Origin: Verrucomicrobiota bacterium
GTDB lineage: Bacteria > Verrucomicrobiota > Kiritimatiellia > CAIVKH01
Direction of reading: 5' to 3'
Assembly: GCA_024233345.1 (NCBI GenBank)
Contig: JACKPT010000015.1
Location: 3,386-67,385 of the forward strand
DNA: 64,000 nt
Shown here: in pieces, positions 32,309 to 59,546 of the stretch
How positions within the stretch are numbered: the first letter of the stretch is position 1
Layout of the letters: each line of letters begins with the position of its first letter
Program-made: the position numbers and the translations under genes
Notes under the pieces: model-generated
Databases searched by the model: none
Seen by the model: only the letters and a program-made list of their open reading frames with translations
Told to the model about the DNA's origin: nothing

Positions 32309-32312
32309 GGTT

Positions 32313-32597: not shown

Positions 32598-32770
32598 AAA
32601 GCGTGACATGCAGACGTTCGCTGGGTAGTATTTCCCTATGGAGCTAAGTAGCGTCAGTGGATTTCAGGAGGAGACAAGGCAAGATCGACAGCGCCACCGA
32701 TCAATGACCCCGGAACAGAGGCTTGATCTGGTCGAGCAATTGCGGATCCGCCATGAAAAGATGTTCGGCC

Positions 32771-34287: not shown

Positions 34288-34377
34288 CCCATTTTCCGGC
34301 AAGGCCTACACAGTCCGTTTGCAACTCGGTATGATATAGACAGGTGCTGTAAAGCATTGAACATAAATAGGTAAATC

Positions 34378-35007: not shown

Positions 35008-35032
35008 GTGATCTGTTGACAGGCTTTAATCG

Positions 35033-35728
35033 ATGAACGCGACCAAACAGAAGAACATGGCGGCTAGGTGGAATGGGTTCACCCTGGTAGAGCTGCTCGT
35101 GGTGATAGCCCTGATGGGTTTGTTGATCGGGTTGACGATTCCCGCGTTTCAGAGCATGGGGCGGGGGACCGCTGCCAAGTCGGCCGTCGCCCAAGTCCGC
35201 GCGGCTCTGACCCTGGCTCGTCAGCATGCGATCGTCAACGGAGAGCGGACCTATGTCGTCTTCCCCAGCCTTCCCTCCCAAGGCGAAAAATACCTTCGCA
35301 GCTTCAATATTTATGGCCAATCCAATGGCTACCTCCAGGCTTGGACATATCTGCCTGGCGGCGTGGTCTTCATCAAGGATCGATCCAGCTTTTTCAATGA
35401 GAACTTGATCGATGACGACAAGAATGTCTTTGCCAATGGGAGTCTGCTTCCAAAAATCCAGTATGCATTGCCCTTTCCCTCGAACAATAGTCCGGATGTG
35501 GTCATGCGGGTGATCGGCTTCATGCCGGATGGCAAGCCGTTTTCAGTCGATGGAAATCTGCGGGGACCGGATGCCGAACTCTACATTACGGAGGGGACGG
35601 TATCGGTAAATCCGGGCACGGGGGTGGGAACCTATGCGGTCCGCTCGAAGGAGAATTCATCCCTTTACAGCGTCTCCCTCAACCCCCTGACCGGTATGTC
35701 CAAAGTTGTCGACTACCGGGCATTTTAG
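35033..35728 (+). CDS. GspH/FimT-like minor pseudopilin
   Basis: Contains WNGFTLVELLVVIALMGLLIGLTIPAF, followed by AVAQVRAALTLARQHAI. Confidence 0.7.
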   Translation: MNATKQKNMAARWNGFTLVELLVVIALMGLLIGLTIPAFQSMGRGTAAKSAVAQVRAALTLARQHAIVNGERTYVVFPSLPSQGEKYLRSFNIYGQSNGYLQAWTYLPGGVVFIKDRSSFFNENLIDDDKNVFANGSLLPKIQYALPFPSNNSPDVVMRVIGFMPDGKPFSVDGNLRGPDAELYITEGTVSVNPGTGVGTYAVRSKENSSLYSVSLNPLTGMSKVVDYRAF

Positions 35729-36249
35729 TGATGACTATGAAGGAACAATCAGGTCGTAACGCGGGCTTTTCCCTGGTCGAAATTGCTTTGGCCCTGATGG
35801 TCACTGCGGTAGGAATGATGGGGATCATGTCCCTGATTCCTGCCTCTTTGGATCTCAACAAGCGGGCCATTGAGGATGGTCAACTCAGCCTATTTGCCGA
35901 CCAGGTGTTAAATGGCTACCGGGCTGAAGTATTGCGCAACCCCTGGGCCCAGCGCTTCAATCATACCTTGAGCCCGATGTCTCCCGAGGTCTGGATTATC
36001 AGCGCCGGCAATCCTCTTACCGTCGAACCGGAACCCGGCACTGGGCTCTCGACAAACTTTTATACCTACAAATCGGCAGGTGGCCGGTTTGTCGAGGATC
36101 TGGTGGTTCGCTACCGGTTGCGCGTTGAAAACTCGAATTTCGATCCAAATATTCTGGAATGCGAGCTCGAGGTTTGGCCGGGTCAATTTGGTTCGGAACT
36201 AAATCCGCTCACCTACTATACGGAAATCTATCGGGGGGATGGGTTGTAA
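35728..36249 (+). CDS. GspI/PilV-like minor pseudopilin
   Basis: Contains NAGFSLVEIALALMVTAVGMMGIMSLIP. Its start overlaps the preceding stop. Confidence 0.65.
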   Translation: MMTMKEQSGRNAGFSLVEIALALMVTAVGMMGIMSLIPASLDLNKRAIEDGQLSLFADQVLNGYRAEVLRNPWAQRFNHTLSPMSPEVWIISAGNPLTVEPEPGTGLSTNFYTYKSAGGRFVEDLVVRYRLRVENSNFDPNILECELEVWPGQFGSELNPLTYYTEIYRGDGL

Positions 36250-37052
36250 TGCATCGCCCCGATACACCATGCCCGTCCCGCTGGTTCCGGCAATCCCGCG
36301 AATCCTGCCAGGCGTTTACGTTAATCGAACTGTTGGCCGGGATGGCGCTGCTCCTGATTATTGTCCTCTTCTTGTCCCGGGTGTTTGCTGATACCACATC
36401 CGCATGGCAAAACAGCAATAAGCGGATGGAAGCCAACATCAGCGGCCGGACGGCTCTGGAATTTATGGCCCGGGAAATCAGCTCCGCCATCGCGGATGGC
36501 ACCCTGCATTTAAAGCTGGAGTCTGATGCGGTATCCGTCCTCGGTAAACAAGCGGACCGCCTCTATTTTCTTGCTTCAGATCAGGTCTCGCGAAAGAAAA
36601 ATTCCACCTATCGCCAAGTGAAACAGGTGGGCTTTTCCGTGGGCGCCATGACGCATCCGGTTACCGGGGCCGATATGCCGCATCGGTTTGCCATCCGGCG
36701 TACCGGGGTGGAATCTCTGGGTAGCCAGTACTATCTGGCCTATCAAAAAGATGATTGGTGGACAACCATGGATGCCATCGCCTTTACCGAGGTCATCGCC
36801 GAAAATGTCCGGGACCTCAATTTCTGGGTCTATGATGCCTCCGGCAACAGTCTTGCGAATTATGACTCCACGGTGGACGGCCCGCCCGCTTTCATTGACA
36901 TCGTGGTGGAGATGTTGAGCGAATCGGACGCGATCAAGATTGCCGCCGCCAGTAGTGCTGCGCAGCGGGAAGAACTGGCGGACCGTGCCGCACATCGATA
37001 TTTCACCCGGGTCTTTTTCAACAACTATCAAGGATATGTGATCGCACCATGA
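36249..37052 (+). CDS. GspJ/PilW-like minor pseudopilin
   Basis: Contains CQAFTLIELLAGMALLLIIVLFLSRVFADTTSAW. ATG 36249 overlaps the preceding stop (TAATG). The track ORF starts at 36159. Confidence 0.65.
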   Translation: MHRPDTPCPSRWFRQSRESCQAFTLIELLAGMALLLIIVLFLSRVFADTTSAWQNSNKRMEANISGRTALEFMAREISSAIADGTLHLKLESDAVSVLGKQADRLYFLASDQVSRKKNSTYRQVKQVGFSVGAMTHPVTGADMPHRFAIRRTGVESLGSQYYLAYQKDDWWTTMDAIAFTEVIAENVRDLNFWVYDASGNSLANYDSTVDGPPAFIDIVVEMLSESDAIKIAAASSAAQREELADRAAHRYFTRVFFNNYQGYVIAP

Positions 37053-39193
37053 GGGTTCTTCAGTCAACTGCCGCCACGGCGTATGCCGCACGTAAAACAG
37101 GGAGGGAGGGGATTGCCCTGGTCATCGTGCTTGGCATGTTGTCCCTGCTGGTCATTATCGGGGTCGGGTTCGCGATTTCCTCCCGTACCGAGCGGTTGGC
37201 CGCCAAGTCGTACGCGGACAGTGTGAGGGGTAAGCAGATGCTGCAAGCCGCCATTGCCAGAACCCTGAGCGATGTCGATGCCTACATGAACACCTTTAAT
37301 CTGATCTATCCCGATTTTGAGTTCCTTCCCAGTACGGGGGTGACCAATGCGTATGGCATGATCTCGGACGAGGCGACAAACTATTTTCCGGATTCGGCCC
37401 AGGTTTCGCTGCAATCGGAAAATCAGAAAGTGGAATGGATAGAGCTGCAAAATAATGACAACGATCTGGTCGGTCGCTATGCCTACCTCATCTACAACCA
37501 TTCCGGCATGATCGATGTCAACGCGGTCTTTCCCCATGTGGATCGCGATCAGGGGGAATCCCTGTTTGAGTTGGATGTGAATCAACTACCGGAGTTCGGA
37601 GGGAATGCCTCTCAATTCAGTGATAATATGTCCGCGAGTTGGACCCGGTTTGAATCCTTCCCAGAACTAAATGTCATCGCGATAAATAGCGGTATGGTCC
37701 AGAAAGCCGAGAATCTGTTCATCTATTCCCGATTTCCTCCGGACCGCAACGCGATCGATGGGGGGTATGCGGATAAGATTGATCTGGCCGGCGATACAAC
37801 CACATTGGAGGGACGGCAGACCGAAATCGTGCAGGGCTTTACGGATTGCAATATTCCTAATCCGGATATCGTCTTTTTGAATCTGCTGGATTATGTGGAT
37901 GATGATTTTATCCCACAGGATTTGAATACGTTTTGCACCGAACCGGTTCCCATGATCAATGAGATGTGGGTGACCAGCCGGATTGTGAAAGCGAACAGTA
38001 CCACGCCTGGCTTCTACACCTATACGCACACCATTTCCCTGAACGTTGAACTATGGCATCCGTTCCCCTCTACGGTAGACGCTGAAGCACCCGATCTACC
38101 CGATGTTGAATTTGCGATTGCAGGTGGCACGCCCCTGCCCATCGCCAATTTCCTGACGCCATTACTTCCACCACTTGGGGCTTCTCCTGGTACAGTCGCC
38201 GGAAATACCATCAATGCCGATGGGGACAACTTTTACATTGTGACTTACACCTGGGAGCTTTCAAACGATTCCACCATCAATGTTCCGCCGACTGCGATTA
38301 TCACCTATAATGTCCAGCTGGGTCCCTATGAAATCACCGTGGATGGACAACCAGCCGACCGGGTCGAGACTTTTCCAGTCGTCCAACTTCAGTTTCCAAT
38401 CAATGGGCAATACAGCGATCCCCGGGGTGTGGCCTGTGTGGATCCACGATTGAACTATGACCCGCTGCAATGGAGTATGCTTGCCGGTAGTTCTATCACG
38501 CCGGGCGCGATCAATAGCCTGTCGACCGGGGGGGAGGGCGTCAGTTCCATGTATGTCCGCAACCAACCCCTGGATAACAACAACCCCCCGGGACAAGTCG
38601 GCGAGCTTGGTTTCCTGTCCGTAGGTGAGCCCTGGCGCACGATTGCCCTTTACGAGACTCCGGTGTCCGGGGTGAATCCGGTGATCGACTATTTCCGAAT
38701 TGGAAATGCAGGGGGGACTGTGAGGGGCAAAATTAATCCCAACACACCTCTGGAAGATGTGCTCTCATGTGCTTTTTTCGCCGCGCCGATCGAGACATCC
38801 CCTGGCGCGGGCGGTCCAACCCTGATCTGGGACAAGGCCAATGATTGGGCCAGTGCCATCATCGATAAGGTGTGGAGTGGGGCCAGTGTGATACCGGTTA
38901 CCAATCTTTCGGAAATAGGCCGCTTTGACCAAAATACCTTCAAGGGCCTGGTGGGTGATCCAAACGCCACCGATGCGGAAATCGAATCCATCATCCGAAC
39001 CTCCTACCCTTTTCTCGGACTGCGGCAGAACCTGTTCACCGCGGTGATTGCGGCTCAGGTCTTCAGCGAAAGCGGCGAACCAATCAGTGAGAACAAGGCG
39101 CTGGTGGTCTTTTGGCGTGATCCGGTTGCCGATCCCAACGACCCGAATCACCACCCTGCGCTTGTTCGGTTCTTCAAGGGACTGGTGGAGTAA
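37049..39193 (+). CDS. Large GspK/PilX-like pseudopilin-associated protein (714 aa)
   Basis: Has the N-terminal anchor REGIALVIVLGMLSLLVIIGVGFAISS (the GspK-type G-x-A-L-x-x-V-L pattern). Its start overlaps the preceding gene, and the extracellular part is large. Confidence 0.6.
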   Translation: MRVLQSTAATAYAARKTGREGIALVIVLGMLSLLVIIGVGFAISSRTERLAAKSYADSVRGKQMLQAAIARTLSDVDAYMNTFNLIYPDFEFLPSTGVTNAYGMISDEATNYFPDSAQVSLQSENQKVEWIELQNNDNDLVGRYAYLIYNHSGMIDVNAVFPHVDRDQGESLFELDVNQLPEFGGNASQFSDNMSASWTRFESFPELNVIAINSGMVQKAENLFIYSRFPPDRNAIDGGYADKIDLAGDTTTLEGRQTEIVQGFTDCNIPNPDIVFLNLLDYVDDDFIPQDLNTFCTEPVPMINEMWVTSRIVKANSTTPGFYTYTHTISLNVELWHPFPSTVDAEAPDLPDVEFAIAGGTPLPIANFLTPLLPPLGASPGTVAGNTINADGDNFYIVTYTWELSNDSTINVPPTAIITYNVQLGPYEITVDGQPADRVETFPVVQLQFPINGQYSDPRGVACVDPRLNYDPLQWSMLAGSSITPGAINSLSTGGEGVSSMYVRNQPLDNNNPPGQVGELGFLSVGEPWRTIALYETPVSGVNPVIDYFRIGNAGGTVRGKINPNTPLEDVLSCAFFAAPIETSPGAGGPTLIWDKANDWASAIIDKVWSGASVIPVTNLSEIGRFDQNTFKGLVGDPNATDAEIESIIRTSYPFLGLRQNLFTAVIAAQVFSESGEPISENKALVVFWRDPVADPNDPNHHPALVRFFKGLVE

Positions 39194-39427
39194 CCAGTAA
39201 GCCGTGAAAAGGGTGGTTGTCGTAAATCGGGAATGCCTTCACTCCAAAGTATTACTCAGCTTTTCCGCTGGTTTTCCGTCGGATATCCATTTGCCGGGCA
39301 ATAGCCCGAAATACAGAAGGAAACGAAGGAAGCGAAGTTGGATCTGTTTCTGGGTCCGAGCCCTGAGAGGGACCTCTTCCTAAGCGGGCTCTTGATGATG
39401 TGCTGTCAATGCAGTAGCGATTGACAC

Positions 39428-39700
39428 CCACCACAGAGGCCACAGAGAATCACAGAGGGATTGGAGATTGGTCACCTCGTAGCGCGGGTCTCCTGCCCGT
39501 GTATCGGGAGCCGGACTGCGCCTGGGCGTCCAGGAAACACCGTCCAATCAATACGCTTCATTCACCAATCCCAAATCTTAAATCTTCAATCCCCCAATTC
39601 CTCTGCGCTCTCTGTGCCCACTGTGGTGAATCTTCCCTGACTTTCCGATCAACCAATCTTCAATCTAAAATCTTCAATCTAAAATCATAAATCTCAACTC
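39428..39700. repeat. Mosaic repeat block with modules in both orientations (long imperfect hairpin)
   Basis: 39428-39459 reads ccaccacagaggccacagagaatcacagaggg, and 39598-39632 reads ttcctctgcgctctctgtgcccactgtggtgaatcttcc. It also has aatcttcaatc-type runs (reverse-complement form of module A). Confidence 0.8.
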
Positions 39701-39707
39701 ATCATTC

Positions 39708-42700
39708 CTACGGTGCGGTCAGGCGGATGCTATAGATTGGGTTCGTGACTCCAGTCGGGAAATTGAACCAGACTTGATTGGTGCCGCCGGTCCATTGTTC
39801 ATTGAAGGGGGTGACCATGGTCCAGGCCACCGGATTGGCCATCAGGTTCGTGGTTATCATCGGCTGCACGGTCCAGTTGTCGGGATTGCCCACCACCGTG
39901 AACTGCACATTGGTCTTCATGATCAACGCGGTGATGTACGCTTCAGGCACGATTAGATCGCCAAAGATCTGGCCCATGTTGACCGCACCGGGCGTGGAGA
40001 AGACTATGTTCGTATCAAATGCCCAGGCAAAATCATCCCGGTTGGTGCCGGTACCGATCAGAGCGACACCGTTGGTACCTGCTGGTTCGATGTCAATCTT
40101 GCTGACCAGTTCAAATCCACTGGCCACGCCTCCGAACATAATGCTGTCTTCGACGCCTCCGACTTCATTGAGCAGTTGAATCCCGGTTGGAATGTCCCAG
40201 AGTAGATTGGTGAACATTTGATCAGAGGCATCGGGCAATAATTCGTTCCCGAGAACCCAGAAACCATATCCACCGCTTTCATTCAACAAGGTTGTGTTGT
40301 TGGTGATCGTATAGCGGGATATCAGGGTGATTTCGTGATAAATCGCAATGGACCAATCTGAAAGGTCAAAGCCGGCAATCCCTGCCAATTCAATGAAGGC
40401 AGGGGTAAATGCAAATCCCCAACTATTGAAAGCATCATTATAATCCACCTCATTGATCCAGACCTGACCTGGTTCCGAACGCGGGATCCCGTAGGAACCG
40501 GGGACGCCGGGGGCTGTGTCCGGATAGTAGGCGGGGGAGTTGAGTTCACTTCCGGGACCGGAGAATTCTACCTTGAAGTAGTACTGCACGATGGTACCGG
40601 CGGGTTGAGCCGGAATATTCGTCGCGGACCGATAGGTGATGTAGCCGGTATTGGTCATCGCGAGGGTGGTAAATCCGCCGCTGGTTCCGATTCGGTAGTA
40701 CGCGGTCACGTTGGTCGTTTCCGCGCCGTTGGCGGGTAAGACGATGGCATCGAGGTAGACGGCATCATTGGTAAAGGGGGCCGGGGGATCGATTTCCGCA
40801 TTGATCACCACATCCGCCGGAGGCTTGGGGGTATCAATGAGAATGTTGTCGAAAAGGACACGCCCGCCTCCATTTTTGTACAACCGGACATATACCCCAT
40901 TGGTGATGAAATTATATTTCGAGTAGTACAAATATCCACTATCATTGGTAATCGATAGCGTATCGATTGATGTCCAGGAAGATCCATTAATCGATGTCTG
41001 TATCTCGACTGCTGCGGTGTTATTCGTGTCGGTAGACCATAGCTTGTATTGGAACGAGATATTTCCTGCGCCATCTGGGAATAAGTGCGATTGTATAATG
41101 GACTGTGTGTTGCGGTTCATCCGCCCAACTTGTCCCTCGTATCCTTCCTCTGGGTCTACAATGACCTCCTGAACCGACCAACCCTCCCATTCATCGGTTC
41201 CTGAGGTGTAGGAGCCTTTGCGCGGCCAGGTTTCAAAGTTCTGGTTTCGGTAGGCCACTGGTTTGCTGATGCTGAAATCGTCGATCAATAGTTCCTGGGG
41301 ACCGGTTTCTCCGGTCGCAACCCCGACAATATAGACATCATCGAAGGCCAGGTTTCCTGAAACTTTGGTATAGGTAAACCGGATCTGGATGACATTGGTG
41401 GAAAGGGAGTAGGAGGGGCTGGACTCGGTATTGCTCAGCGAGGTGAGGTTGACCAGGGTGGTCCACAGGCTGCCGTCGGTGGTGGTTTCAATGAGGAATG
41501 AAGAACCGGAAATCCCATTGCCCTTCATCCAGAAGGTCAGGTTGGTTGGATGATTCAAAACCGGGGTGGTGATCGTATCGCCTGTGGTATCGAATTTCAC
41601 TGAGTTGGGAGACTCCCCGGAGCTGGAATCGCTGGTATATTCACCAACCCCATCAAAGAGCCAGCCGCCAGGGGCTTCACTACCTTCGGTAAATGGTTCC
41701 TGGATCAGGACATTGTCTATCGCTCCGGCATCGATCTGCTGGTTGACAATGCGAATATAGCGGGGGTTGGGTTCGTAAAAGAACTGATTATATTGGATGT
41801 AGGAACCACTGATGATCGGCTCAATCACTGCTAGGTCCGTCCAGGTATTGCTGCCATCGGGCGATTCCTGCAGCCGCAGCGATGCGGGTCCATAGCCATT
41901 GGTGCCCCTGGCGTACTGGAAGGAGATGGTCCCATATCCGTCACTGTAGTAGGGGGAGCGGAGTTGCCAGGTAAAGACATTGGTGGGAACGAGTGGATCA
42001 CCAATGACCCCGGAGGTTCCACTGTAGGCTTCATTGGTGGTGATGCGTCCGAGACTGAGCAGCCAGTCATTGATGGTGATGATGGTGTCTGATGTATTGG
42101 TCCATCCCGCTCCTTCGAAATCCTGCAACCGTGGATCATCGGTGGCATCCGCGAGCTGAATGTCATCGATGAGGAGGTTGTTGGTGCCGGATAAATGATC
42201 GACGCGTACATAGCGAACATCAGGGTCGGCAAGGTACAGAGAGTAGGACTGATAACTTTGGGCGACAATGTTGGATACCGTGCCTTTGGTGGTCCAAGAA
42301 CTGCCGTTGGGCGAAGTCTGGACGCGGAAGGTGATGGGCTCGAGGTTGTCCTCCGGATCTGTGGTGTTTTCATGCCGGTAGAAAAAATTGACCCGGCCCA
42401 CCCCGGAGGTGGTAAGCGGGGAAACAATCTGGCCCCCCTGGGGTAGACTCGCGGCCAGCCCGGTGCGGGCTTCATCGGTGACTGATCCCGTGGTCATCAA
42501 CCAGCCTGCATAGCTGTATCGCCCGGGAGTAAAGGCGAATGGCCAACTGAAGGATTGAGCCATGGGGGGAATCTCCCGGATCGATACATCATCGAACTGT
42601 AGGGAACCAAGATCGCCCGCCCCGCTGACACTGATTACGGAACGCGCGTACATGGTGCCCTCTGGGGCCTCTCCGATGACCTTGAACTCCGTCCAGTCAC

Positions 42701-43469
42701 TGGTCAAACCATCGAGCGGGGTTGCGTATACCGCGAGGGGACCGCTGAACCCGGACCCAAAAAATTCAATTTTCAGCTCTTTGTTGTCGGCAGTCCAGGG
42801 ACCATAGGGTGGTTCCGCATCGGCCCAGAAGTTTGCCGTCAACTCATAGGTAAAGCCGCGCCCGGCAGGAATATCCTGCCAGAATCCGCCATAATCCCAA
42901 TCACCCGCCCCGATGTAGGCAATCGATGAGCCGGTGAGTGCACGCCAATCGGCCCGGCCGACGTTTCCCCATAGATCCCCCATACCATCAGGAAACCCAT
43001 TTTCCCAGTGAAGGGGTTTGGTTTCTTCCGAACCTTCCAGCTCAAAGCTGCCATTGCGGGTGCGGTTGGTCCAGGGCAGAGAAACACTGTCCAAAATGAT
43101 CGAGTAGATCAGGGTCTGATCATTGAAGGTGAAACGGTAATAGCCATCCTGGGGGAAGGAGATTGCTATGTCCGCGGCTGTAAGGATTGCAACGTTGGTC
43201 ACTGGAGGCGAGAGGATCGCGGATTGGCCCCAGTTGATGTCCCAAGAGCGATTCGCAGCGAATTTGAAATACTCTTGGGCGCCCCGCTGCGCAAACAGGG
43301 TGGCCCGCCAGGTGTTGTTCGACACCAGGGTCATGTTGTTGGCCCCGGGGTTCCAGCCCTGGAAACTCCCGGCGAGGGTCATGCTGGAATAGACCGAGGT
43401 CTGGGCCAGCCCCACCACAGGGAGGGCGGTCACCAACAGGGTAATGGCAAATCGTCTCAACATCTTCAA
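39708..43469 (-). CDS. Large secreted protein: CBM-like N-domain, six repeated beta-sandwich modules, lamin-tail domain, shared C-terminal module
   Basis: The signal peptide is MKMLRRFAITLLVTALPVVGLAQT. GSFQGWNP...YFKFAANRSWDINWG is CBM20/48-like, and NGSFELEG is CBM4_9-like. Module ends recur as DDVSIREI, IDDIQLAD, DNVLIQE, FDDVYIVG, IDDFSISK and FDNILIDT. The LTD-like segment is GQVWINEVDYND...FIELAG...LSDWSIAIY (about nt 40100-40480). Confidence 0.7.
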   Translation of the reverse strand: MKMLRRFAITLLVTALPVVGLAQTSVYSSMTLAGSFQGWNPGANNMTLVSNNTWRATLFAQRGAQEYFKFAANRSWDINWGQSAILSPPVTNVAILTAADIAISFPQDGYYRFTFNDQTLIYSIILDSVSLPWTNRTRNGSFELEGSEETKPLHWENGFPDGMGDLWGNVGRADWRALTGSSIAYIGAGDWDYGGFWQDIPAGRGFTYELTANFWADAEPPYGPWTADNKELKIEFFGSGFSGPLAVYATPLDGLTSDWTEFKVIGEAPEGTMYARSVISVSGAGDLGSLQFDDVSIREIPPMAQSFSWPFAFTPGRYSYAGWLMTTGSVTDEARTGLAASLPQGGQIVSPLTTSGVGRVNFFYRHENTTDPEDNLEPITFRVQTSPNGSSWTTKGTVSNIVAQSYQSYSLYLADPDVRYVRVDHLSGTNNLLIDDIQLADATDDPRLQDFEGAGWTNTSDTIITINDWLLSLGRITTNEAYSGTSGVIGDPLVPTNVFTWQLRSPYYSDGYGTISFQYARGTNGYGPASLRLQESPDGSNTWTDLAVIEPIISGSYIQYNQFFYEPNPRYIRIVNQQIDAGAIDNVLIQEPFTEGSEAPGGWLFDGVGEYTSDSSSGESPNSVKFDTTGDTITTPVLNHPTNLTFWMKGNGISGSSFLIETTTDGSLWTTLVNLTSLSNTESSPSYSLSTNVIQIRFTYTKVSGNLAFDDVYIVGVATGETGPQELLIDDFSISKPVAYRNQNFETWPRKGSYTSGTDEWEGWSVQEVIVDPEEGYEGQVGRMNRNTQSIIQSHLFPDGAGNISFQYKLWSTDTNNTAAVEIQTSINGSSWTSIDTLSITNDSGYLYYSKYNFITNGVYVRLYKNGGGRVLFDNILIDTPKPPADVVINAEIDPPAPFTNDAVYLDAIVLPANGAETTNVTAYYRIGTSGGFTTLAMTNTGYITYRSATNIPAQPAGTIVQYYFKVEFSGPGSELNSPAYYPDTAPGVPGSYGIPRSEPGQVWINEVDYNDAFNSWGFAFTPAFIELAGIAGFDLSDWSIAIYHEITLISRYTITNNTTLLNESGGYGFWVLGNELLPDASDQMFTNLLWDIPTGIQLLNEVGGVEDSIMFGGVASGFELVSKIDIEPAGTNGVALIGTGTNRDDFAWAFDTNIVFSTPGAVNMGQIFGDLIVPEAYITALIMKTNVQFTVVGNPDNWTVQPMITTNLMANPVAWTMVTPFNEQWTGGTNQVWFNFPTGVTNPIYSIRLTAP
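39711..39947 (-). other. Shared C-terminal ~80-aa module, copy in the 1253-aa protein
   Basis: Sequence: VQFTVVGNPDNWTVQPMITTNLMANPVAWTMVTP...GVTNPIYSIRLTAP. Confidence 0.5.
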
Positions 43470-43544
43470 TCTCCTATCCTCTGGGGATAATTTACCCCCG
43501 AACCCTACGCCCGTTAAAGCGCTTTTGCCAAGTGAGGAGTTTGT

Positions 43545-44145
43545 TGGGGGATTGGTTGATTAAAGATTTGAGATTTGAGATTGAAGATTGGTGAATTGAG
43601 ATTGGGGAATGGTGAGTCGGGGGAAGGTTCACCACAAAGGACACAGAGAGCGCAGAGTAATTGGGGGTTGGATGATTGAAGAATGAAGATTGATGATTTG
43701 AGATTGGGGATTGGGGGTTAGGGACCTGGCCCTGAAGGGGCCGAAGTCGATAGCCCATGGCAGAGCCATGGGGGAGGACGATCCCCCAAACAAATTTGTG
43801 CTGAAGGCACGACATTCGGGTCCTGAAACCTGCCTGCCCGTCCAGGGCCTGCCCGGCCAGGGCCTGCCCGGCCAGGGACACCTACCACAGAGGACACAGA
43901 GAAACACAGAGGGAGATTGGGTGATTGGTAAACTCGTAGCGTGGGTCTCCAGACCCGCGTATCGGGAGCAGAACTGAACGCAACCGATTACGATTACGAT
44001 TAGGATTACGAGTAGGAGGAGGGTTACCCCCCCCCAATCTCTCTCTCTGCGCTCTCTGTGGTGGGTGCCCCTGGCCGTGCAGGCCCTGACCGGAAAGTCG
44101 GCTCATACTTCATAATCGTAATCCTAATCGTAATCGTAATCGAAA
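43545..44145. repeat. Largest mosaic repeat block, including an inverted REP-like unit (43722-43815), a 15-mer x3 tandem (about 43831-43876) and a 25-bp perfect inverted repeat
   Basis: Modules A, B, C, D and E are all present, several in both orientations. Details are in the findings. Confidence 0.85.
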
Positions 44146-44283
44146 CAGGGATGCTGGGTGCATGATGAATCAAGCATCAGGGCCCGAGGGTTAAGCCAGA
44201 GGTACTCTTTTCCGCTTCCTGTGGTTTATCTTTCCGGATAGTTTGACCTGACAGATGGGGCAAATCCGGTTAATGATCCTACC

Positions 44284-46707
44284 ATGACCCAAACACTGCT
44301 CCATCATGATGGTATTTCCTGCCGGTTCATCCTGATCCTCGCCGGATGGCTGGTCGCCATGCCCGCCCTCGCGACAATCCCGATTGTGGAGGATATCGAT
44401 GCGGATGATGATGTGTTGTCCGTCGACTGGGCGCCGGACGATACCCATGTGGGGGTGGGGACTGGTACAATCCTCGCCAAGGAACTCAAGGTCTACTCCT
44501 TTTCCGCGATCACAGAAGTGCTGACCCTTCGCTACCAAACCAACTATTCCGCGACGCCCCAGCCAGTGAATGCGGTCCGATGGCATCCTTCCCAGCATTA
44601 CCTCGCGGTGGGGAGTCAGGACAACTCCGCACATGAACTGACTGTCTATAATTTCAATGAAATCACCCACAAACCGACCGCAACCAACAGTGTTGATTTC
44701 GGTACCTTTGACAGTGTCAAGGCACTGGCCTGGAATCCGAATGGCAATACCCTTGCGGTGGGGACGGACATCTCAGATAAGGAAATCATTCTGTATTCCT
44801 ATGGCCCCGGCTCTCTATCCACATCGAGGGTGTTCAATGTGGATTCCAGTAACACACGACAGATCATGACCAATGCCATGGCCTGGCATCCGGGGGGTAC
44901 CAACCTTGCTGTCGGGTTCGCCTATAACTCGAGCTCACTGGCGGAAGAACTCAGAGTGTATTCATGGAATGGATCAATCTTGACGGAAAAGTTCGCCGCC
45001 AACATGACATCGCTGCATGACGTTTCGGCGGTTGGTTGGTCGGCGAATGGACGGGTGCTTGCAGTGGGGCTTCATCGGGCAACTGCGTCTGCTGCGCAAA
45101 AGCTCCTGTTGTACCGAGAAAGCGGGGGGGATTGGGATGTGGACATCGCTTATGTACCTCCAACCCTTAATAACATCGTTGGCCTTGAATGGTCGCCGGA
45201 GGGAAATCTTCTTGCTGTGGCCTATGATCGGTCTGCGCTCGGTGCTGATGTTGGACTTTATCGATATCGCGAAGATACCGATTCCCTTGAGTATTTGGAT
45301 GGAGCTCTAGCGTCTCTTAGTTCAACGGATGACGCCAACGACATCCGCTGGTCGGAGGATGGGCGGTATCTTGCGGTGGGGCATGAGAATGACAAGGTGT
45401 ACATTCTGGAGGTGAAGCAGGCGGACTTGCGGTTAACCAAGACGGTGTCGTCTTACCTGGTCTGCCCGGAGAGCAATCTGGTGTATTCCCTGAATGTGTT
45501 CAATGCCGGTCCGGATCCTGCGGTTTCGGTGGTGATTACCGATACACTTCCATCCCAGGTGACGTATGAAGGCAGTTCTTGGCCGACCGCACAGGTCTCG
45601 CAGGTGGGGCAGACGCTGACGTTTGATTTTGGTACGAACACCCTGCCCAGTTCATTTGGTGCGCTGATTTCGGTCACGGTCAGTGTGAATACCGCCGCTT
45701 CGGGGATCTTTACCAACTTCGCCGCCGTCTATAGCGAAACCACCGATCCGGAGTTCACCAACAATCTCGGGTTTGCCACCAATGCGGTGGATTTCGATTG
45801 CGACGGGATTGCCAATGAGCTGGACAACTGTCCGACCAATTTCAATCCCGATCAGGCCAACTCGGATGCCGACGGGTTTGGGGATGTCTGCGACAACTGC
45901 ATCAGCAATAGCAATCCCGACCAGCTTGATGTGGATTTCGATGGGCTGGGGAACGATTGTGATAACTGTCCAACCAATCCCAACCCAGGGCAGGTAAATT
46001 TCGATGGCGATCCGTTTGGCGATGATTGTGACGATTGCCCATTTGTCTACAATGAGACCAACGGCCTGCCAGATGTGGACGCAGATGGATTTGCCGACCT
46101 GTGTGATAACTGTCCGACCAACAGCAATGCTGGGCAAGAGGACGGGGATAGTGATGGGGTGGGGAATGTCTGTGATAACTGCCCCAGCGACGCCAACCCG
46201 GACCAGGCCAATCCGGACGGGGACAACCGGGGGAGTGCCTGCGATAACTGCCCGGACGTCGCCAATGATCAATCCGACAATGATGGCGATTTGATCGGCA
46301 ACGCCTGCGACCCGGATATCGACGGAGATGACCTGCCGAATGACTGGGAAAGTCTGTATGGCTTTAACCCAAACTTTTTTGAGGCCCCGGAAACCACCAA
46401 TGATCCGGATAACGACGGGTATTCGAACCTCGAGGAATACATTGGGAACACCAACCCCACCAACCCAGCCTCGTTCTTTGCTGTGCAAATGATCGGGAAC
46501 ACCACCGGGTTGTGGCTACAGGTACCCTCGGAAACCGGACGCCTGTTCGATGTCTGGACCTCCACCAACCGCCAGATGACCGACTGGACCCTGTATGCTA
46601 CCAATCTGCCCTCCACCTCCGGCACCACCCAGCTCCCGGAACCCGATCCCCAGCCGGGAGAAAAGAATTACCGGGTCAAGGTCCGACTGGAGCATCCCCT
46701 GCCGTAG
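44284..46707 (+). CDS. Secreted protein: 7-blade WD40-like propeller + DUF11 repeat domain + Cys-containing thrombospondin type-3 repeats + shared C-terminal module
   Basis: Blades are marked by W-x-P/A-x-G-x-x-LAVG (RWHPSQHYLAVG, AWNPNGNTLAVG, AWHPGGTNLAVG, GWSANGRVLAVG, EWSPEGNLLAVA, RWSEDGRYLAVG). The DUF11-like segment is LRLTKTV...VVITDTLPSQVTYEG. TSP3 repeats read DNCPTNFNPDQANSDADGFGDVCDNC, about 7 times. Confidence 0.75.
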   Translation: MTQTLLHHDGISCRFILILAGWLVAMPALATIPIVEDIDADDDVLSVDWAPDDTHVGVGTGTILAKELKVYSFSAITEVLTLRYQTNYSATPQPVNAVRWHPSQHYLAVGSQDNSAHELTVYNFNEITHKPTATNSVDFGTFDSVKALAWNPNGNTLAVGTDISDKEIILYSYGPGSLSTSRVFNVDSSNTRQIMTNAMAWHPGGTNLAVGFAYNSSSLAEELRVYSWNGSILTEKFAANMTSLHDVSAVGWSANGRVLAVGLHRATASAAQKLLLYRESGGDWDVDIAYVPPTLNNIVGLEWSPEGNLLAVAYDRSALGADVGLYRYREDTDSLEYLDGALASLSSTDDANDIRWSEDGRYLAVGHENDKVYILEVKQADLRLTKTVSSYLVCPESNLVYSLNVFNAGPDPAVSVVITDTLPSQVTYEGSSWPTAQVSQVGQTLTFDFGTNTLPSSFGALISVTVSVNTAASGIFTNFAAVYSETTDPEFTNNLGFATNAVDFDCDGIANELDNCPTNFNPDQANSDADGFGDVCDNCISNSNPDQLDVDFDGLGNDCDNCPTNPNPGQVNFDGDPFGDDCDDCPFVYNETNGLPDVDADGFADLCDNCPTNSNAGQEDGDSDGVGNVCDNCPSDANPDQANPDGDNRGSACDNCPDVANDQSDNDGDLIGNACDPDIDGDDLPNDWESLYGFNPNFFEAPETTNDPDNDGYSNLEEYIGNTNPTNPASFFAVQMIGNTTGLWLQVPSETGRLFDVWTSTNRQMTDWTLYATNLPSTSGTTQLPEPDPQPGEKNYRVKVRLEHPLP
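46462..46704 (+). other. Shared C-terminal ~80-aa module, copy in the 807-aa protein
   Basis: Sequence: FFAVQMIGNTTGLWLQVPSETGRLFDVWTSTNRQMTDWTLYATNL...GEKNYRVKVRLEHPLP. Confidence 0.5.
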
Positions 46708-46900
46708 GGATTTTGGATTGAAGATTGAAGATTGAGGATTTGAGATTTGGGGATTTGTGATTGTTCGGGGAAGTTCACCAGCGAAGTTTCACCACAGAGG
46801 ACACAGAGAGGGCAGAAGATTGAGGATTTGAGATTGAAGATTGGGGAATTGAGATTGTTGATTGGATAGGCCCTGGCCGGGCAGGGACACCTGAAACCCC
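46708..46900. repeat. Mosaic repeat block (modules A, B, A, E/F)
   Basis: Contains gattgaagattgaagattgaggatttgagatttgggg..., ttcaccacagaggacacagagaggg and ...ccctggccgggcagggacacctgaaacc. Confidence 0.8.
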
Positions 46901-46985
46901 TTTCCCCCGACACCTTCCTCGCCTCCGTTTCTTCATCGAAACTCACCGCTTGAACAAAGTTTCAATTTATGTGTCCATTTCCCAT

Positions 46986-47633
46986 ATGAATTCATTGTAC
47001 GCCTTCCGTTTGTTTGCCTTGTCGCTCGCGCTTGTTCTGTCTTTTTCGGCGTTCTGCCCGGCGGCGGAGATTCTGGTGGGCGGTTCGCCATCGGCGGAGT
47101 CGGCTCGGGTGGAATTGGAGCGAGTCAAACACCGGGCGATGTTTGACAATGCCGACATCATTCCCCTGCGGATCGAAGCGAGCAGGCTGGAGGGGGAGAT
47201 GATTGAGGCCCGACGGGTTTGGTTGGATTACTGTCGGACCCATTTCCCGAAGATTCGCGAGCTCGAATTGAAGCAAAAGGGGCTTTTTGAGCAGAAAAAG
47301 GAGCTTCAGGCTGTCATGGCCGCCATTCAGAACGAGGTGGAACAGGCCGCCCGGGACAGCGATCAGGGACGGGTGGCTTCACTCACCGGGGAAACCCGGG
47401 AAAAGGTCAAACAATTGGCCTTGCTCGACCAGGAGTTGGATGCCCTAGGCCCGCAACTCGACGCCCAGCGGGAAGAGGCGGCGGAGTCCAGTCCCGAAGC
47501 TGAAGCCCTGGCCGCCACCGCCGCAGAGCTGGAGGAGGCGTTCGGGGAGGCTCATCGGACTCTGAACGAGGCGGTCAATGCCCTCCCTGAGGTCATCGCG
47601 GCCGAGCAGGCCCGGCGGGCTGCCGTCCGATAA
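46986..47633 (+). CDS. Secreted coiled-coil protein, function unknown
   Basis: The signal peptide is MNSLYAFRLFALSLALVLSFSAFCPAAE, followed by about 190 aa of E/A/R/Q-rich coiled coil. The track ORF starts at TTG 46950. Confidence 0.55.
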   Translation: MNSLYAFRLFALSLALVLSFSAFCPAAEILVGGSPSAESARVELERVKHRAMFDNADIIPLRIEASRLEGEMIEARRVWLDYCRTHFPKIRELELKQKGLFEQKKELQAVMAAIQNEVEQAARDSDQGRVASLTGETREKVKQLALLDQELDALGPQLDAQREEAAESSPEAEALAATAAELEEAFGEAHRTLNEAVNALPEVIAAEQARRAAVR

Positions 47634-47915
47634 AGCGTGAGCAACGTGGCACGGGAAGCCTGCCCGTGTCCCCTTCATTAACCGGGGGAGAAACCCTTTC
47701 TGGGTTCAAACCGCCTTTTCGCTTTCCTGATCATCATCCTGCGCGAAATCCTCACCATTGTTCCGGTAAGGAAAAAACCGATTTCGCGAGCCCATTACCT
47801 TGACGGAGTTTTATTGGATCGATTAGGCTATACGGCACATGGTTAACCGCTTATATTGTCAACCTGTGATTTGCAAACCCGTACACCGTAGTCCTGATCC
47901 TTTAAGGGGGCTCCT

Positions 47916-50900
47916 ATGTTCTCAATGATTGCGCGAACCCGCTCTGTCCTGTCTTTTTCCCTGGTGCTGGTCGCCAGTCTGGCCTTGGCCATCCCCAGCT
48001 CCGAATCGCAATTCGAGGAACCTGGCAAAATTGTCATCCATGAAAATCAGGGTCAGTTTGATGTACGGATTGAACAGGCGCGGCTCGGGGATGTGGCGAA
48101 CGTGCTGGAACAGCAGTTGGGATTGCGGTTGTCGATTCCCGAAGAGTTGGCAGACCAAAAGGTTACTCTCCGCGGCCATGGCCTTTCGACCGAGGATATT
48201 CTCGCCAATCTCGGCGACAGTATGGCGATGGTGTTCGAGCAGGAGGGCGAGGGTCTGCGTCTGGTCTCGGCCCAACTGACCAGCCAGCAGGATGAGGTTG
48301 CCGGGGACGCCTATGAGGATGATCCCACCGCCGAAGTGATGCGACTCCAGGGACACCGGCTGACCAATGTACGCAAGGACCGGCCCATCGGTGCAGCGGC
48401 CCGGAACCCCCGGGCGCTCGCGCTGAAGAATGCCCTGATTGACACCGAACGGGCGGCCCGGAGCGGGATCTCGGTGCAGGTTCCGGAGGCACTGACGGCA
48501 AGCGAGGATTCCGAATGGAAGATTGTCCAGTTTGACCAGCCGGTGAGCCAGGCGGACCTGGATGCTCTGGCGGCGGCGGGATTTGTTCGCGGACATTATG
48601 TCCCCAACAATGCCTTTGCGGTCCGGGTCGCTCCGGGACAGGAGGATGATTTGGCCGCCCTGCCGAATGTGTATCACATTGAGCCCTATCACCCTTACTA
48701 CAAGCTCAGTGAGCCGGTATTGGCCCACTTGCTGGGCGATGCGAATCCGGAGCAGGAAGCCCTTGTCGATGAGGGCAGATTTAATGTGGTCACCTTTCAT
48801 GGGGAAACCGATCTCAAATCGTTGGGGCGCGGGGTGACCGTGGTTAAGGAAACCGTACTCGATGACCGGAAGGTGGTGGAGATCACCGCGCCGAAGGAGC
48901 AGTTGCTCGCGCTGGCCCGGAACGACGCGGTGCAGTGGCTGGAAACCACTGCGGTTCTAAAGCCGATGAATGACACCGGAAAGAAAAAGATTCGCGGTGT
49001 CGCGTTACAGGAGCGGTTGCCACAGTTTACCGGCAAGGGAGTGGTGATCGGGGTCACCGACAGCGGGATCGATGTCAACCATCAGGGCTTTGCCCTCCAG
49101 CCCGGCCTGCCGACCGGGTTGGGTCAAAACACCCGGGTCAGCTACTACATCAATGAAGCCAGTGTCACCACTGACGGGGTGATCGGGGACAACAACGGCC
49201 ATGGAACTCATGTCGCGGGAAGTATTCTGGGCAATGGTGCCTTATCCAGTACCGCCAATAGCGTCCCCGGATCGGATGGACCTCCCTATGCGGAAGGGCA
49301 ATTTGCCGGTATGGCACCTGACGCCCGGGCGGTGATCATCGAGGACTTCAATGCCTTCTCCTATTCGGAACAGGTTGCCATTGCCTACACCAACAAGGCC
49401 CGGCTTTCCAACAACAGTTGGGGGGCCAGTGTCTATGAATATACCTCGGACTCGCTGTCGTGGGATTTGCTGGTTCGGGACGCTCTGCCGGATGTCTCGG
49501 GCCGCCAGGAATTCATTGCCTTTTTTGCCGCGGGCAATGACGGGCAGGGTGGCGATGATGGCCTCAATGGCAGCCCGGAAACCGTGGGCACCCCCGGCAA
49601 TGCAAAAAATGTGATCACGGTGGGGGCGATGGAGCAACGCCGGTACGCGAACAACCTCAGTGGCATTTATGATTTGACCGACACCGATTGGCAAATTGCC
49701 TCCTTCAGCTCGCGGGGTCCGGTCGAACTGTATAACGAAGCGGGAAGCGACACCCGGATCAAGCCGGATATCGTCGCCCCCGGCGTTTATGTCCTGTCGA
49801 CCCAGTCCAAGGACACCAACCCCGACCAGTTGATCAATCCGATCAGTCTTTCCGATGATTACAAGTCCGGTAATGTCGATACCGGCACCAACTATGCCTT
49901 TTACAGCGGCACTTCGATGGCCACCCCGCTGACCACGGGAGCCGGGGCCTTGTTCTATGAGTACTACACCAACAAGTTTGGCACAGTACCCAGCCCGGCC
50001 ATGATGAAGGCGGCATTGATTGCGGGGGCCCGCATGGTCAACACCCTGGTTTATCAATATCCCCAGGCCACCCCGTTTGTGGAAGTGGTGGATCAGGGAT
50101 GGGGCCGGGTGGATGTCCTGCGGTCCGCCCAAGGGTCATTGATTCAGCCTTCCGACGATCTCATCATGATCGACCAATCTTCACCGATTCAGACCGAGCA
50201 GTTTTTCTCCCAGCAGATCACGGTGAACCCGGGGGATGGCGGTCTCAAGGTCGTACTGACCTGGACCGATCCGCCGGGCAACCCTGCGAATAGCATCCAA
50301 TTGGTCAATGACCTAGATCTGCTCGTGCTCGCCCCGGGCGGCGGCGGGTATATCGGAAACCGTTTTGATCTTGATGGCGTTTCCTCCCGCTTGTTCCCGG
50401 TGGCTGACCCGGTTCTGGGGGATGAACACAACAATGTCGAAGTGGTTCTCATTCCGGATCCGATTCCCGGGACCTACACCATCCGCGCCTATGGATACAG
50501 TGTGCCGGAAGGGCCGCAGGATTTTGCCATGGTGATCATGAAGGGGGTCGGAACCGAGCGGCGCTCCGAAGGCGATTCCCCAGCGATTACTGTGGATGAA
50601 ACCGGACAACCCTATGTGGCCTATTCCGGATTTGATGTGGGGGGCAACCGCAATATTTTCGTCAAGCAGTGGCGGGGGGATATGGGTGACCTCTCCGATT
50701 TTGGCGAGTGGAAGCGGTTGGATGACAATTGGTTTGGCCTCAAAAGCTCGGCCAGTGGCACCGGGGTGAGCCTGACTTTGGAGGACTCCCGCAAGCCGAC
50801 CATCGCCGTGCGGGATGGCAAGATTTATGTGGCCTGGCTGCAGGCGGGGTCGCACACCAATATTTACATGCGGATGTATGACGGTTCCAACTGGCAAGAG

Positions 50901-53900
50901 CTGGGCGGTTCGGCCAGCGGCGACGGGGTCAGCCAGCAGACCACCTATGCCCCGACCGATCCCAAGATTGCCGTCGGTGCGGATGGGCTGCCGGTCATAG
51001 CCTGGCGTCAACAATCCCTGACCAATATCAAGATTGTCGCGAAGAAGTGGAATGGGTCCTCCTGGGTGGGGCTGGGCGGTTCGGACGTTGGTATAGGCGA
51101 CAGCAACCAGTCGGTGGCGCCAACCTTGACCATCAACAGCTTTGGCAACCCGGTGGTGGCCTGGAGTGAATTGCTGACCCAGTTGATCCATGTCTGGCAG
51201 TGGAATGGGGCGGCCTGGGTCAATCTCGGCCAGCAGGGAAATCTACCCTTCACGGAAATGCCACATATTGATGCCGGTCCCAATGGCGACCTGTACCTGA
51301 CCTGGATCCAGACCACTGCGGTCCAGAACCCCAACCAGATTTTTGCCTCTCGTCGTACCGGAGGATCCTGGCAGGCGATGGGCAACTCCCTGACGTACCC
51401 GGGAATCAGTGCCTCGACCAGCACGGTGACCCGGCCTTTCAATCCGAACATTTCCTATAGCGCCCAGCCCTTTCCCCGGGTGTTTGTCTCGTACCTCTCG
51501 GGTACCGGAACCAACGCCATGGTGAATGTGAAGCAGTACGATTTTGCGACCTGGAGCGGGGTCGCAGGCGCGGGAACCAAGCCAGGTGTCGATGAATTCA
51601 ATGGCGGCGCCACCAATCTGGTCATGGATTCCACAGCGTTGGGAGTGCCGGTGGTCGCTTTCGATACGGATGGCGGCATCGGTATCCAGGAAACGGTCAC
51701 CTATGGTCTGGTCGCGGATATCATTGCGCCCACTTTTGAGGGTCTGACCAAAGCGGTGGGCGGAACGAATAACGAAGTGGTCCTGACCTGGCGGGCGGCT
51801 GGAGATAATCTGTCGACCGGTATTACCTACCGGATCTATATGGGAACCAACAAGTATGCCTGCTACGATGTGCCGATGTGCAATCCGGCGGATGTCTTCG
51901 CCAATCAGATCGCCACGGTGGCCAATCTCACCAACTTTACCGTCAATGGACTGGCCAACTACGAGAACCGTTGTTTCGGGGTGCGTTCGGTGGACGCTTC
52001 CGGCAATGCCGATACCAATACAGTGATCCTGTATGCCGGACCGGAGGCGAGCGGGGTGGACTGCTTCGATCTGGATACCGACAATGACGGTCTGCCGGAC
52101 TGGTGGGAGAACTCCTTCGGGCAGGGCAATCCTGCGGCCGATCCGGATGGGGATGGCCTTACCAACAGCAATGAATTCCAGTATGCGACCGATCCGCTGC
52201 GCAGTGACAGTGACAGTGATGGCATCAGCGATGCGGATGAAATCAACCTCATCGGCACCCTGCCGTCGGTGGCCGATTCCGATGGCGATGGTCTCGACGA
52301 TAATCATGAGTTCACCCTCGGCAGTGATCCGGTCGATGCCGATAGTAATGACAACGGGGTCAGCGACGGCGACCTGGTGCGGATGGGGTATCCGGATCCC
52401 ACCCTGGCTATCGAGGTATACAGCCGGTTGTATGTCGAGACATTCGAGGCCAATTCCCCGAGCCGGACCAACTGGAGCAAGGTGGTGCCCAACCAGCAAT
52501 ATCCGCTGAACTTCTGGCATTTGTCGGATGCCGAACCGTCGCCGAATACCACGGGCATCCAGCGGTTCAATGATCACTCCACCAATACGTCGTACCGGAT
52601 GGCGGTGGACATCACCCGCACCAATCCTGCCGCATCCTATCAGGTCGGCACCAACCTGTGGATCGCCGGGTTGGCCAGCCCGATGATCGATGCCAGCACC
52701 AACGACAATCTCTACGTCTGGTGGAAGGAATATTACGATCTCGAACCGAACAAGGACTTTGGGGAAGTCCAGGCCCGGGCTTCGGGGGATACGAATTGGA
52801 TCGTGGTCAGTGTCCCGGTGACCGGTAACAGCGGCGCCTGGGTCAACAACCGTGCTGACTTGTCGATGTTTGCCGGCCAGTCCAATGTCCAGATCCGCTT
52901 TGTGTTCACCGCCAACGGCGTGAATAACCAGCATCACGGCTGGTATGTCGATGATGTCCAATTCATCTCCGGAGCGAATAATCTCGTCGGTTGGGTCCGG
53001 GACATCTGGGGGCGTCCGGTGCTGGGGGCCAAGGTGGAGATCATCGGGATTGGCATTGTGACCAATGTAGCGGGTGGTCATGGCGTCGCTGCGGCCGGCA
53101 AGATTTTTGGCGAAGCCTTTACCGCCGCCGACGGCAGCTATCAGGTTCAGGGATTGCCGCGTGGGCAATTCTATGCGAAAGCCAGTCACGCAACCTACCA
53201 GGCAGAATTCTGGAATGGGGAACTGTTCAACCCGACCTACGATTTTGGCAATGAAGCCAATCCCGGGGTGTTCCGGATTGATGATGTGGGTCCGGGGGGG
53301 ATTGTCGACCTCACCGCCGGAGTGGGCCCGGAGGTGGACTTTGAGCTGGAGTTTGGAACCAGCCCCAGTTTCATCACCGCAGTGGCCACGCCAGCGCTGC
53401 CGGTATATCTCAACTTCAACCGGTCCCTGCAGTCCTGGAACGGAAGTACCAGTTCCCCGGCTCTGGTGGCTTTGCAGACCATCCCCGGGCCCCCGGTGGA
53501 TAACCAGGCGGATTGGGATACGAACCCGGTCGCCCCGAATTTCTATTCCAGCGCGTCTGCGGGTGAAACCTTCATGGGCCTTGGGGGAACTCTCTGGAAT
53601 ACCCCGCCAGTCCGGACGGATATCCGACAGGGAGAACTTGTCCATGCCTACATGGGAACCAATGGCGGACGCGGCGTTGTCTTTGTCGCGTCCCTGGATG
53701 GCATCTCCCGATCGATCTATATCAACGGTTCCGATACCGGTGCCGACACCCCGGCCCAGATTGCGGTGCAGGCTGGCGAGCATCTCATTCAGATTGCCGG
53801 TCCCGGTGAGGCGGACAATATCGTCAAGATTGTGCAGGTCCCGCTGGGCGTTCGTACCAACATTGCCTTCACGGCCGCAGATCTTTATGGCGATGCGGGC

Positions 53901-59546: not shown

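Follow-up and report, generated by a model that had tools for sequence, protein, structure and literature searches.

A C-terminal FN3-derived module on exported proteins of Kiritimatiellia and related bacteria, with a possible role in docking at the cell envelope

Several kinds of domain are known from exported bacterial proteins that bear comparison with the one described here. The C-terminal domain (CTD) of type IX secretion systems (T9SS; Por_Secre_tail, TIGR04183/PF18962) of Bacteroidota is a beta-sandwich of about 70-80 residues at the extreme C-terminus, carried by many unrelated signal-peptide proteins of one bacterial lineage and present many times per genome. The SLH, LysM and choline-binding repeats are terminal and often tandem, occur on diverse exported catalytic domains and have known ligands; tandem repeats at the ends of diverse exoproteins characterize such non-covalent anchors. 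Fibronectin type III (FN3)-like domains are common structural spacers, and the Fn3 domain of Pel3/PelI is complete, lies at the N-terminus and occurs once. In Pectobacterium and Dickeya, loops of that Fn3 domain are key determinants of the secretion of Pel3 and PelI via a type II secretion system (T2SS) (PMC7949064). Here we analyze a stretch of 64,000 nucleotides (the window) from a Kiritimatiellia genome (Verrucomicrobiota bacterium, assembly GCA_024233345.1, contig JACKPT010000015.1, positions 3,386 to 67,385 of the forward strand), in which three large secreted proteins, termed A, B and C below, had been proposed from the letters alone to share a C-terminal module of about 80 residues that might serve in sorting or anchoring (the sequence-only reading). 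Profile comparisons indicate that B and C end in copies of one homologous module, and A probably does as well. The module belongs to a large family that is nearly always the last domain of its carriers, and the explanation that we prefer, with chances that we see as evenly balanced, is that it is a terminal FN3-derived module of bacteria of the Planctomycetes-Verrucomicrobia-Chlamydiae (PVC) group that docks exported proteins at the cell envelope.

The three open reading frames (ORFs) are real, and their last 80 residues are exactly those quoted in the sequence-only reading. Gene A (39708-43469, minus strand) encodes a protein of 1253 residues composed of a signal peptide, repeated F5/8-type-C/galactose-binding-like modules, a lamin-tail-like domain and the tail. 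The product of gene B (44284-46707, plus strand; 807 residues) contains a signal peptide, a WD40-type beta-propeller, DUF11, TSP3 repeats, a linker and the module; that of gene C (47916-59546, plus strand; 3876 residues) contains a signal peptide, an S8 subtilase domain, TSP3_bac, a MAM-like domain, PEGA, CarboxypepD_reg, a Kelch propeller and the module. These domains were assigned with Pfam and NCBIfam; the signal peptides, a plausible Sec signal at the N-terminus of each protein, were read directly from the sequence. The remainders of the three proteins, taken earlier to be unrelated, do mostly differ in architecture, apart from the TSP3-type repeats that are common to B and C.

The module of C occupies 59361-59543 (plus strand) and ends in ...SGLRFYRVWLLNQP; the hidden Markov model (HMM) envelope within it covers residues 3816-3871 (59361-59528), after which five residues remain to the end of the protein. 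In B the module lies at 46462-46704 (plus strand; envelope at residues 739-799, 46498-46680) and ends in ...GEKNYRVKVRLEHPLP. Directly before it stands a TSP3-like calcium-binding linker (46327-46476, plus strand; DGDDLPNDWE...DPDNDGYSNLEEYIGNTNPTNP), in which Pfam TSP3_bac matches residues 707-728. The tail of A, about the last 71 residues (39711-39923, minus strand), follows the lamin-tail-like domain and ends in ...NPIYSIRLTAP. The models of Pfam and NCBIfam leave all three tails uncovered, and no record was returned when protein B was looked up by exact match. The TSP3_bac (PF18884) and Amuc_1099 models match the linker only and not the module: the NCBIfam Amuc_1099_fam match in B is confined to residues 682-731 and reaches 28.6 bits, below the curated cut-off of 50. 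Membership of the Amuc_1099 family, and with it a reading of the match as homology to a pilus protein, was rejected on this ground, since in B and in many database hits the match does not exceed that score and falls on the TSP3-like linker alone. The earlier statement that the proteins carry no PEP-CTERM, LPXTG, T9SS CTD or terminal transmembrane segment holds, as A, B and C gave no such match in Pfam or NCBIfam. The tails end in a beta strand and 5-9 polar or proline residues and contain no hydrophobic helix. Signals of the PEP-CTERM, LPXTG, MYXO-CTERM and GlyGly-CTERM types were rejected because neither a sorting-signal match in these two databases nor a C-terminal hydrophobic helix was found.

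The alignment of the three tails by eye is in itself no evidence of homology, because pairwise BLASTP of the last 100 residues of A, B and C is not significant (E = 2.0, 0.55 and 0.30). This result, together with the noise-level score of tail A given below, would suit the view that there is no shared module and that the tails resemble one another by chance, as low-complexity, beta-rich termini may. Profiles built from sequences outside the window speak against that view for B and C. A scan of species-representative genomes with B led to loci in Pontiellaceae (Kiritimatiellota) and Akkermansiaceae that match B residues 678-804. An HMM made from only four Pontiellaceae copies matched the extreme C-terminus of C at E=0.002 (2018 ORFs); when iterated it matched the C-terminus of B at E=0.058 and then at 0.0014, in both cases before B was included. 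An HMM without any window sequence gave 25 bits for B (E=5e-5, 2018 ORFs) and 22 bits for C. With an HMM of 283 domains, none of them from the window and with B's own database entry left out, C scored 51.1 bits and B 35.2 bits, and none of 5000 shuffled sequences reached either score. When the same HMM was applied to the C-terminal 93 residues of 503 ORFs, no true member fell below 22 bits and nothing else rose above 3.2 bits. The scores of B and C stand far above this noise ceiling, thousands of homologs of the module exist, and chance similarity of these two tails was therefore rejected; for the tails as a set we regard it as very improbable. The tails of B and C are, on this profile evidence, copies of one homologous module, whose identity we hold with high confidence. 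The shared tail proposed for all three proteins thus stands for B and C, where an external profile recovers what pairwise comparison misses; it does not do so for A, which is probably a member with an HMM score at noise. A word-indexed protein search with tail C alone gave no matches, and with profiles only four short fragments; broad alignments of the module are too divergent for pattern scans.

For tail A the direct statistics are negative. It scores 1.7 bits with the 283-domain HMM, a value reached by 982 of 5000 shuffled sequences, and aligning tail A alone with the module family by hhalign gives a probability of 0.14%; judged by direct sequence statistics alone, A would not be counted as a family member. 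Its relatives tell a different story. As a single query protein A found none in genome or metagenome contigs, and its orthologs in two other Kiritimatiellia loci, L093 and L094, surfaced only when a two-sequence alignment of A and the first ortholog was used as the query. The L093 ortholog is 39% identical to A over residues 8-1251 and has an A-type tail, alignable to that of A, which ends in ...NVIYRLRFSE. The L094 ortholog (37% identity over residues 11-1182; on the same contig as locus L062) is longer than A and ends in a canonical module (...RSGFYRIELREP). When a two-sequence profile of the A and L093 tails is set against the family, the alignment stays in register from 'TNL..W' through to the final residue (hhalign P=0.001, probability 21%). 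A module-like tail terminates all nine A-family relatives, and it is canonical in seven of them; the distant relatives in Verrucomicrobia are all module-ended, several with ...RFYRARLTP where A has ...IYSIRLTAP. A composite regular expression derived from the family matches 70 of 157 members against 3 of 3328 control C-termini, all three being A-family proteins; it was composed after A had been seen, so that its match carries less weight for A itself. Taken together, the orthologs suggest with good probability that tail A is a copy of the module that has diverged strongly.

The module is about 65-75 residues long and follows the consensus v.l.W.S..G..Y.V..s.nL....W/F..l...i.at.....y.D......rFYRv.V., after which come 3-6 residues, the protein usually ending in E or P. 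The distance from the φ-Y-R-φ motif to the C-terminus is 3-6 residues in 90% of cases, with E as the final residue of 37% of the module proteins and P as that of 34%. An exhaustive HMMER search of 1.84 billion representative proteins with a six-sequence module profile returned 9576 proteins within a threshold of E<=1e-3, a number that falls to 749 at E<=1e-10; the hits are cluster representatives, standing for at least 9576 protein clusters. All organism-labelled loci are from PVC bacteria, namely Kiritimatiellia, Lentisphaerae/Victivallales and Verrucomicrobiota (Limisphaerales and Pedosphaera among them) plus one metagenome-assembled genome (MAG) of Planctomycetaceae. The taxon scans used subtype-specific patterns, and the confinement to PVC is that of the labelled hits; one subtype has 78 loci, all PVC, and a tandem subtype occurs in Verrucomicrobiota and Kiritimatiellia. 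One narrow pattern alone finds up to eight loci in a single MAG.

The position of the module within its carriers is highly regular. Among the 151 best database hits the last copy lies within 6 residues of the C-terminus in 145. The 69 single-copy proteins of this set all have it within 5 residues of the end; the remaining 82 carry 2-10 tandem copies, the last of which is terminal in 76. The top full-length scores over-represent multi-copy proteins, and the ratio of single to multiple copies is not a population estimate. In genomic DNA, 119 module ORFs were found in 92 loci (1.24 Mb), and 117 of the 118 that have a stop codon end within 12 residues past the module; the tandem arrays in Verrucomicrobiota loci are terminal as well. 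In 95 of 130 ORFs the module comes after a TSP3-like linker with a double calcium loop. The carriers are large hydrolases and adhesins of several domains, among them S8 and C1A peptidases, GH16, alpha-amylase, pectate-lyase-like, FGE-sulfatase-like, LTD and propeller proteins; their median length is about 900 residues, and a crude heuristic flags a signal peptide in 57% of them against 21% of other ORFs. The expected enrichment in large signal-peptide proteins is thus borne out, and so is the placement of the module like that of a terminal tag or anchor. In Pontiellaceae, three loci share a conserved run of three module genes (L001, 5530-10789; L002, 5114-10384; L004, 1188-6544), in which two peptidase-like genes, both module-ended, lie upstream of a gene for an FGE-sulfatase-like protein of about 730 residues with two modules, each after a TSP3-like linker; module genes therefore cluster locally in other genomes too.

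Our comparison of the module with known structures suggests that it is remotely homologous to bacterial Fn3-like domains. A module profile (A6) searched against the sequences of the Protein Data Bank (PDB) matched 3MPC, an 'Fn3-like protein', at E=6.9e-6 (29 bits) and 5G56, which we take to be CtXyl5A of Clostridium thermocellum, at E=8.7e-5. Both the module and these domains are small beta-sandwiches with the strand order 'ltW.s..G..Y.V.Rs...g.y..ia....ytD......YyY.V'. The alignment covers strands B to F, from the 'ltW' strand to the 'YYYVV' strand, and then stops, whereas 3MPC has 28 further, unmatched residues beyond the aligned F strand. AlphaFold2 (AF2) models agree in outline: tail C is predicted as a beta-sandwich (pLDDT 84), and tail B, modelled with a 44-sequence alignment, as a beta-sandwich of six strands (pLDDT 79) whose chain ends 6 residues past the last strand. 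In Foldseek searches of the PDB with tails B and C the matches of highest probability are mostly FN3 domains (neogenin, Ihog, Tencon and Pel3; TM-score 0.5-0.68, probability 0.8-0.93), every one of them at E>0.1. An FN3 domain has seven strands (A, B, C, C', E, F and G, with G after the Tyr-corner F strand), a set that the predicted module structure does not complete, and the Pfam fn3 model (PF00041) matches none of 44 modules even at E<=1, nor the tails of A, B and C. Neither Por_Secre_tail nor any recurrent family matches those 44 modules at E<=1; canonical members, too, are without a Pfam or NCBIfam model. The module is best described, as far as sequence and models can tell, as an FN3-derived sandwich without an FG loop or G strand. 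It differs from Fn3-like domains in stopping 3-6 residues after the F-like strand, in standing nearly always last, where the Fn3 domain of the 5G56 chain is internal (residues 622-687 of 862), and in the confinement of its labelled hits to PVC bacteria. A literature search on the motif and on C-terminal sorting domains of PVC bacteria found no description of it, and the module appears to be a distinct variant among FN3-like beta-sandwiches and the C-terminal domains of exported proteins, one that lacks the G strand, nearly always stands last and has so far been seen in PVC taxa only.

This relationship raises the question of whether the module is simply a generic structural FN3/Ig-like spacer or stalk without any role in sorting or anchoring, its terminal position being, for example, a by-product of accretion or shuffling of a 'TSP3 linker + FN3' cassette at the 3' ends of genes. 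The homology to ordinary bacterial Fn3-like domains fits such a role, as do the arrays of up to 10 copies and the presence in at least 9576 protein clusters, whose catalytic domains are unrelated and for which no linked machinery was seen. The sequence-only reading had itself named a generic Ig/FN3-like terminal domain, found in many proteins regardless of this locus, as the outcome that would tell against it, and this is largely what emerged: the module is FN3-related, through 3MPC, and widespread regardless of locus. Ordinary bacterial FN3 linkers, however, usually lie internally, between catalytic and binding modules; the module ends its protein almost without exception in both the genomic ORFs and the top hits, the FYRV strand and the stop codon are separated by a nearly fixed distance, the protein tends to end in E or P, and the G strand is consistently absent, as judged from model and alignment. 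We consider a pure spacer rather unlikely.

The PDB search also brought weak matches to the chitosan-binding modules 2RV9 and 4ZXE (E=0.004), which raise the possibility of a small carbohydrate-binding module that targets enzymes to polysaccharide substrates rather than to the surface of the producer. Many carriers are indeed glycan-active (GH16, alpha-amylase, pectate-lyase-like, F5/8-type-C lectin-like repeats), and an A-T-P-P-x-N loop is conserved in one module subtype. The module is, however, equally common on S8/C1A peptidases, WD40/Kelch propellers and FGE-sulfatase-like proteins, carbohydrate-binding modules are not restricted to the extreme C-terminus, and the chitosan-binding matches are weaker than the Fn3-like match; we consider this reading quite unlikely.

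We propose instead that the module acts in non-covalent anchoring or docking, a function for which the chance seems to us somewhat short of even. A carrier would be exported by Sec and then cross the outer membrane, and the terminal module would hold or dock it non-covalently at the cell envelope, additional tandem copies adding avidity or reach. Contact would probably be made through the edge strand FYRVxV, exposed close to the free C-terminus: if the absence of the G strand is real, this strand forms the edge of the sheet and hence a natural site for strand augmentation. The analogy to SLH, LysM and choline-binding repeats is one of working and not of ancestry, their folds and sequences being unrelated to the module, and we know of no covalent or cleaved sorting signal that forms tandem arrays. 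The surface location, the binding partner and any secretion role of the module are inferred. The suggestion of a recognition tag or surface-attachment domain accordingly stays a reasonable hypothesis, favored by the positional behavior and by the carriers, and its proposed tie to a secretion locus is not supported.

Several observations count against envelope docking. FN3-like domains being common spacers, the last-domain rule could reflect gene assembly rather than function. One genomic ORF (L044, 3-1382) breaks the rule, its module being followed by about 280 residues with a GH16-like EIDMMEF motif among them; fusion of two genes, loss of a stop codon or a copy that is truly internal could each account for this ORF. 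Foldseek returned nothing significant (all E>0.1), the fold class thus coming from one profile-to-sequence match and weak TM-scores, and tail A scores at noise. No recurrent neighbor that might be a sortase or receptor was found within 10 kb of module genes (the commonest occurs in 7 of 94 loci), and no genes of a T2SS or type IV pilus (T4P) lie within 10 kb of a module gene in about 130 fetched loci except at the A orthologs.

A more far-reaching version of docking would make the module the recognition or anchoring domain of a PVC-specific sorting pathway, a counterpart of the T9SS CTD of Bacteroidota. The G-strand-less FN3 fold would expose its last strand (FYRVxV and the short tail ending in E or P), which a dedicated envelope receptor, possibly part of the T2SS/T4P-like machine, would capture by strand augmentation, so routing or tethering hundreds of exoenzymes per cell. 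We consider such a pathway unlikely. The module resembles the CTD in its size, in its beta-sandwich at the extreme C-terminus and in its occurrence on many unrelated signal-peptide proteins of one lineage with many copies per genome. It differs in having no sequence match to the CTD, no CTD structure among its top 50 Foldseek matches, tandem arrays of 2-10 copies, and hosts in PVC rather than Bacteroidota; T9SS CTDs do not, to our knowledge, form tandem arrays. Membership of the T9SS CTD family was rejected for A, B and C and for canonical members because of the lack of any Por_Secre_tail or type A/B CTD match, the tandem arrays and the PVC hosts.

It may also be asked whether the module is a secretion or recognition determinant in its own right, read by the T2SS/T4P-like machine encoded upstream in the window or by a PVC-specific sorter in the manner of the T9SS CTD or of the Pel3/PelI Fn3 loop. 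The strict C-terminal placement on carriers that usually have a signal peptide would suit such a determinant, and A-family genes stand beside a pseudopilin operon in three Kiritimatiellia genomes. The Pel3/PelI precedent involves an FN3-type domain as well, and Pel3 (PDB 4u49) is among the weak Foldseek matches (probability 0.92, TM-score 0.54). In Pel3/PelI, however, the signal is composite with the catalytic domain, and known T2SS signals are in general composite and not transferable; the module has no general link to T2SS genes, secretion signals are not known to be repeated in tandem, neither T9SS-type nor sortase-type models match, and no secretin or GspC is visible in the window. A secretion determinant is, on balance, quite unlikely. 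The module as such is not tied to the pil locus, since among the roughly 130 fetched loci only A orthologs adjoin T2SS/T4P genes and no recurrent neighbor was found, and the general link to the pilB-pilT-pilB'-pilC locus that had been anticipated was rejected for this reason.

The upstream locus itself is context for these comparisons. Genes pilB, pilT, a second pilB and pilC/gspF lie at 25051-30911 (plus strand; Pfam T2SSE, MshEN, T2SSF): a PilT-type ATPase lies between two of the PilB type, each of which begins with an MshEN domain, and PilC/GspF comes next. A pseudopilin operon (33826-39193, plus strand; Pfam T2SSG, N_methyl and GspH) encodes a GspG-like protein, four N-methyl minor pseudopilins, one of them GspH-like, and a protein of 714 residues that has no Pfam match and that we read as GspK-like only from its N-terminal hydrophobic segment. 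Neither a secretin nor GspC/L/M or PilM/N/O is visible in the window. Between pilC and gspG, three genes (31055-33214) resemble an insertion into the locus: one for a 23S rRNA intervening-sequence protein, a pseudopilin-like ORF (31547-32308) and a weak AbiEii/nucleotidyltransferase-like ORF (32723-33214). An IS4-type DDE transposase ORF of 620 residues lies at 20258-22120, and an S41 C-terminal processing peptidase with a PDZ domain is encoded at 22642-23913, two genes upstream of pilB. Free C-termini are what PDZ domains recognize; the peptidase may be relevant given the constrained C-terminus of the module, or it may equally be a housekeeping Ctp.

In the window, as in L093 and L094, the A gene stands directly beside an operon of gspG, four minor pseudopilin genes and the GspK-like gene (spans of A gene plus operon: window, 33826-43469; L093, 4456-13822; L094, 3911-15424), in three different orientations: convergent, co-directional and divergent. 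Protein A may serve the pseudopilin system as its dedicated substrate or as an accessory adhesin, a matter separate from that of the module. Two small ORFs without a Pfam match lie near the module genes of the window: the one between B and C (46950-47633) encodes a signal-peptide protein of coiled-coil type, and the one that closely follows C (59706-60563) a protein rich in Thr and Ser whose signal is of the lipoprotein type (..MFSGC). An ORF of 846 residues runs antisense to C (51243-53783, minus strand); like several further long ORFs on antisense strands, it is almost certainly an artefact that arises where coding sequence is rich in G+C.

Verrucomicrobiota, Kiritimatiellota and Lentisphaerae play a major part in breaking down complex and sulfated polysaccharides and export very many enzymes, and we know of no described mechanism by which PVC bacteria keep or display exported enzymes at the cell surface. 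Should the module prove to be only a structural FN3 variant, Pfam and NCBIfam would still gain a family definition that they lack, and the notion that the module is part of the pilus locus studied here would be corrected. As a strict last-domain module on thousands of proteins, it offers a means of predicting which proteins of mostly uncultured lineages are secreted or at the surface, a candidate display tag, and a concrete, reporter-testable hypothesis for the route by which their exported enzymes may be retained or sorted.

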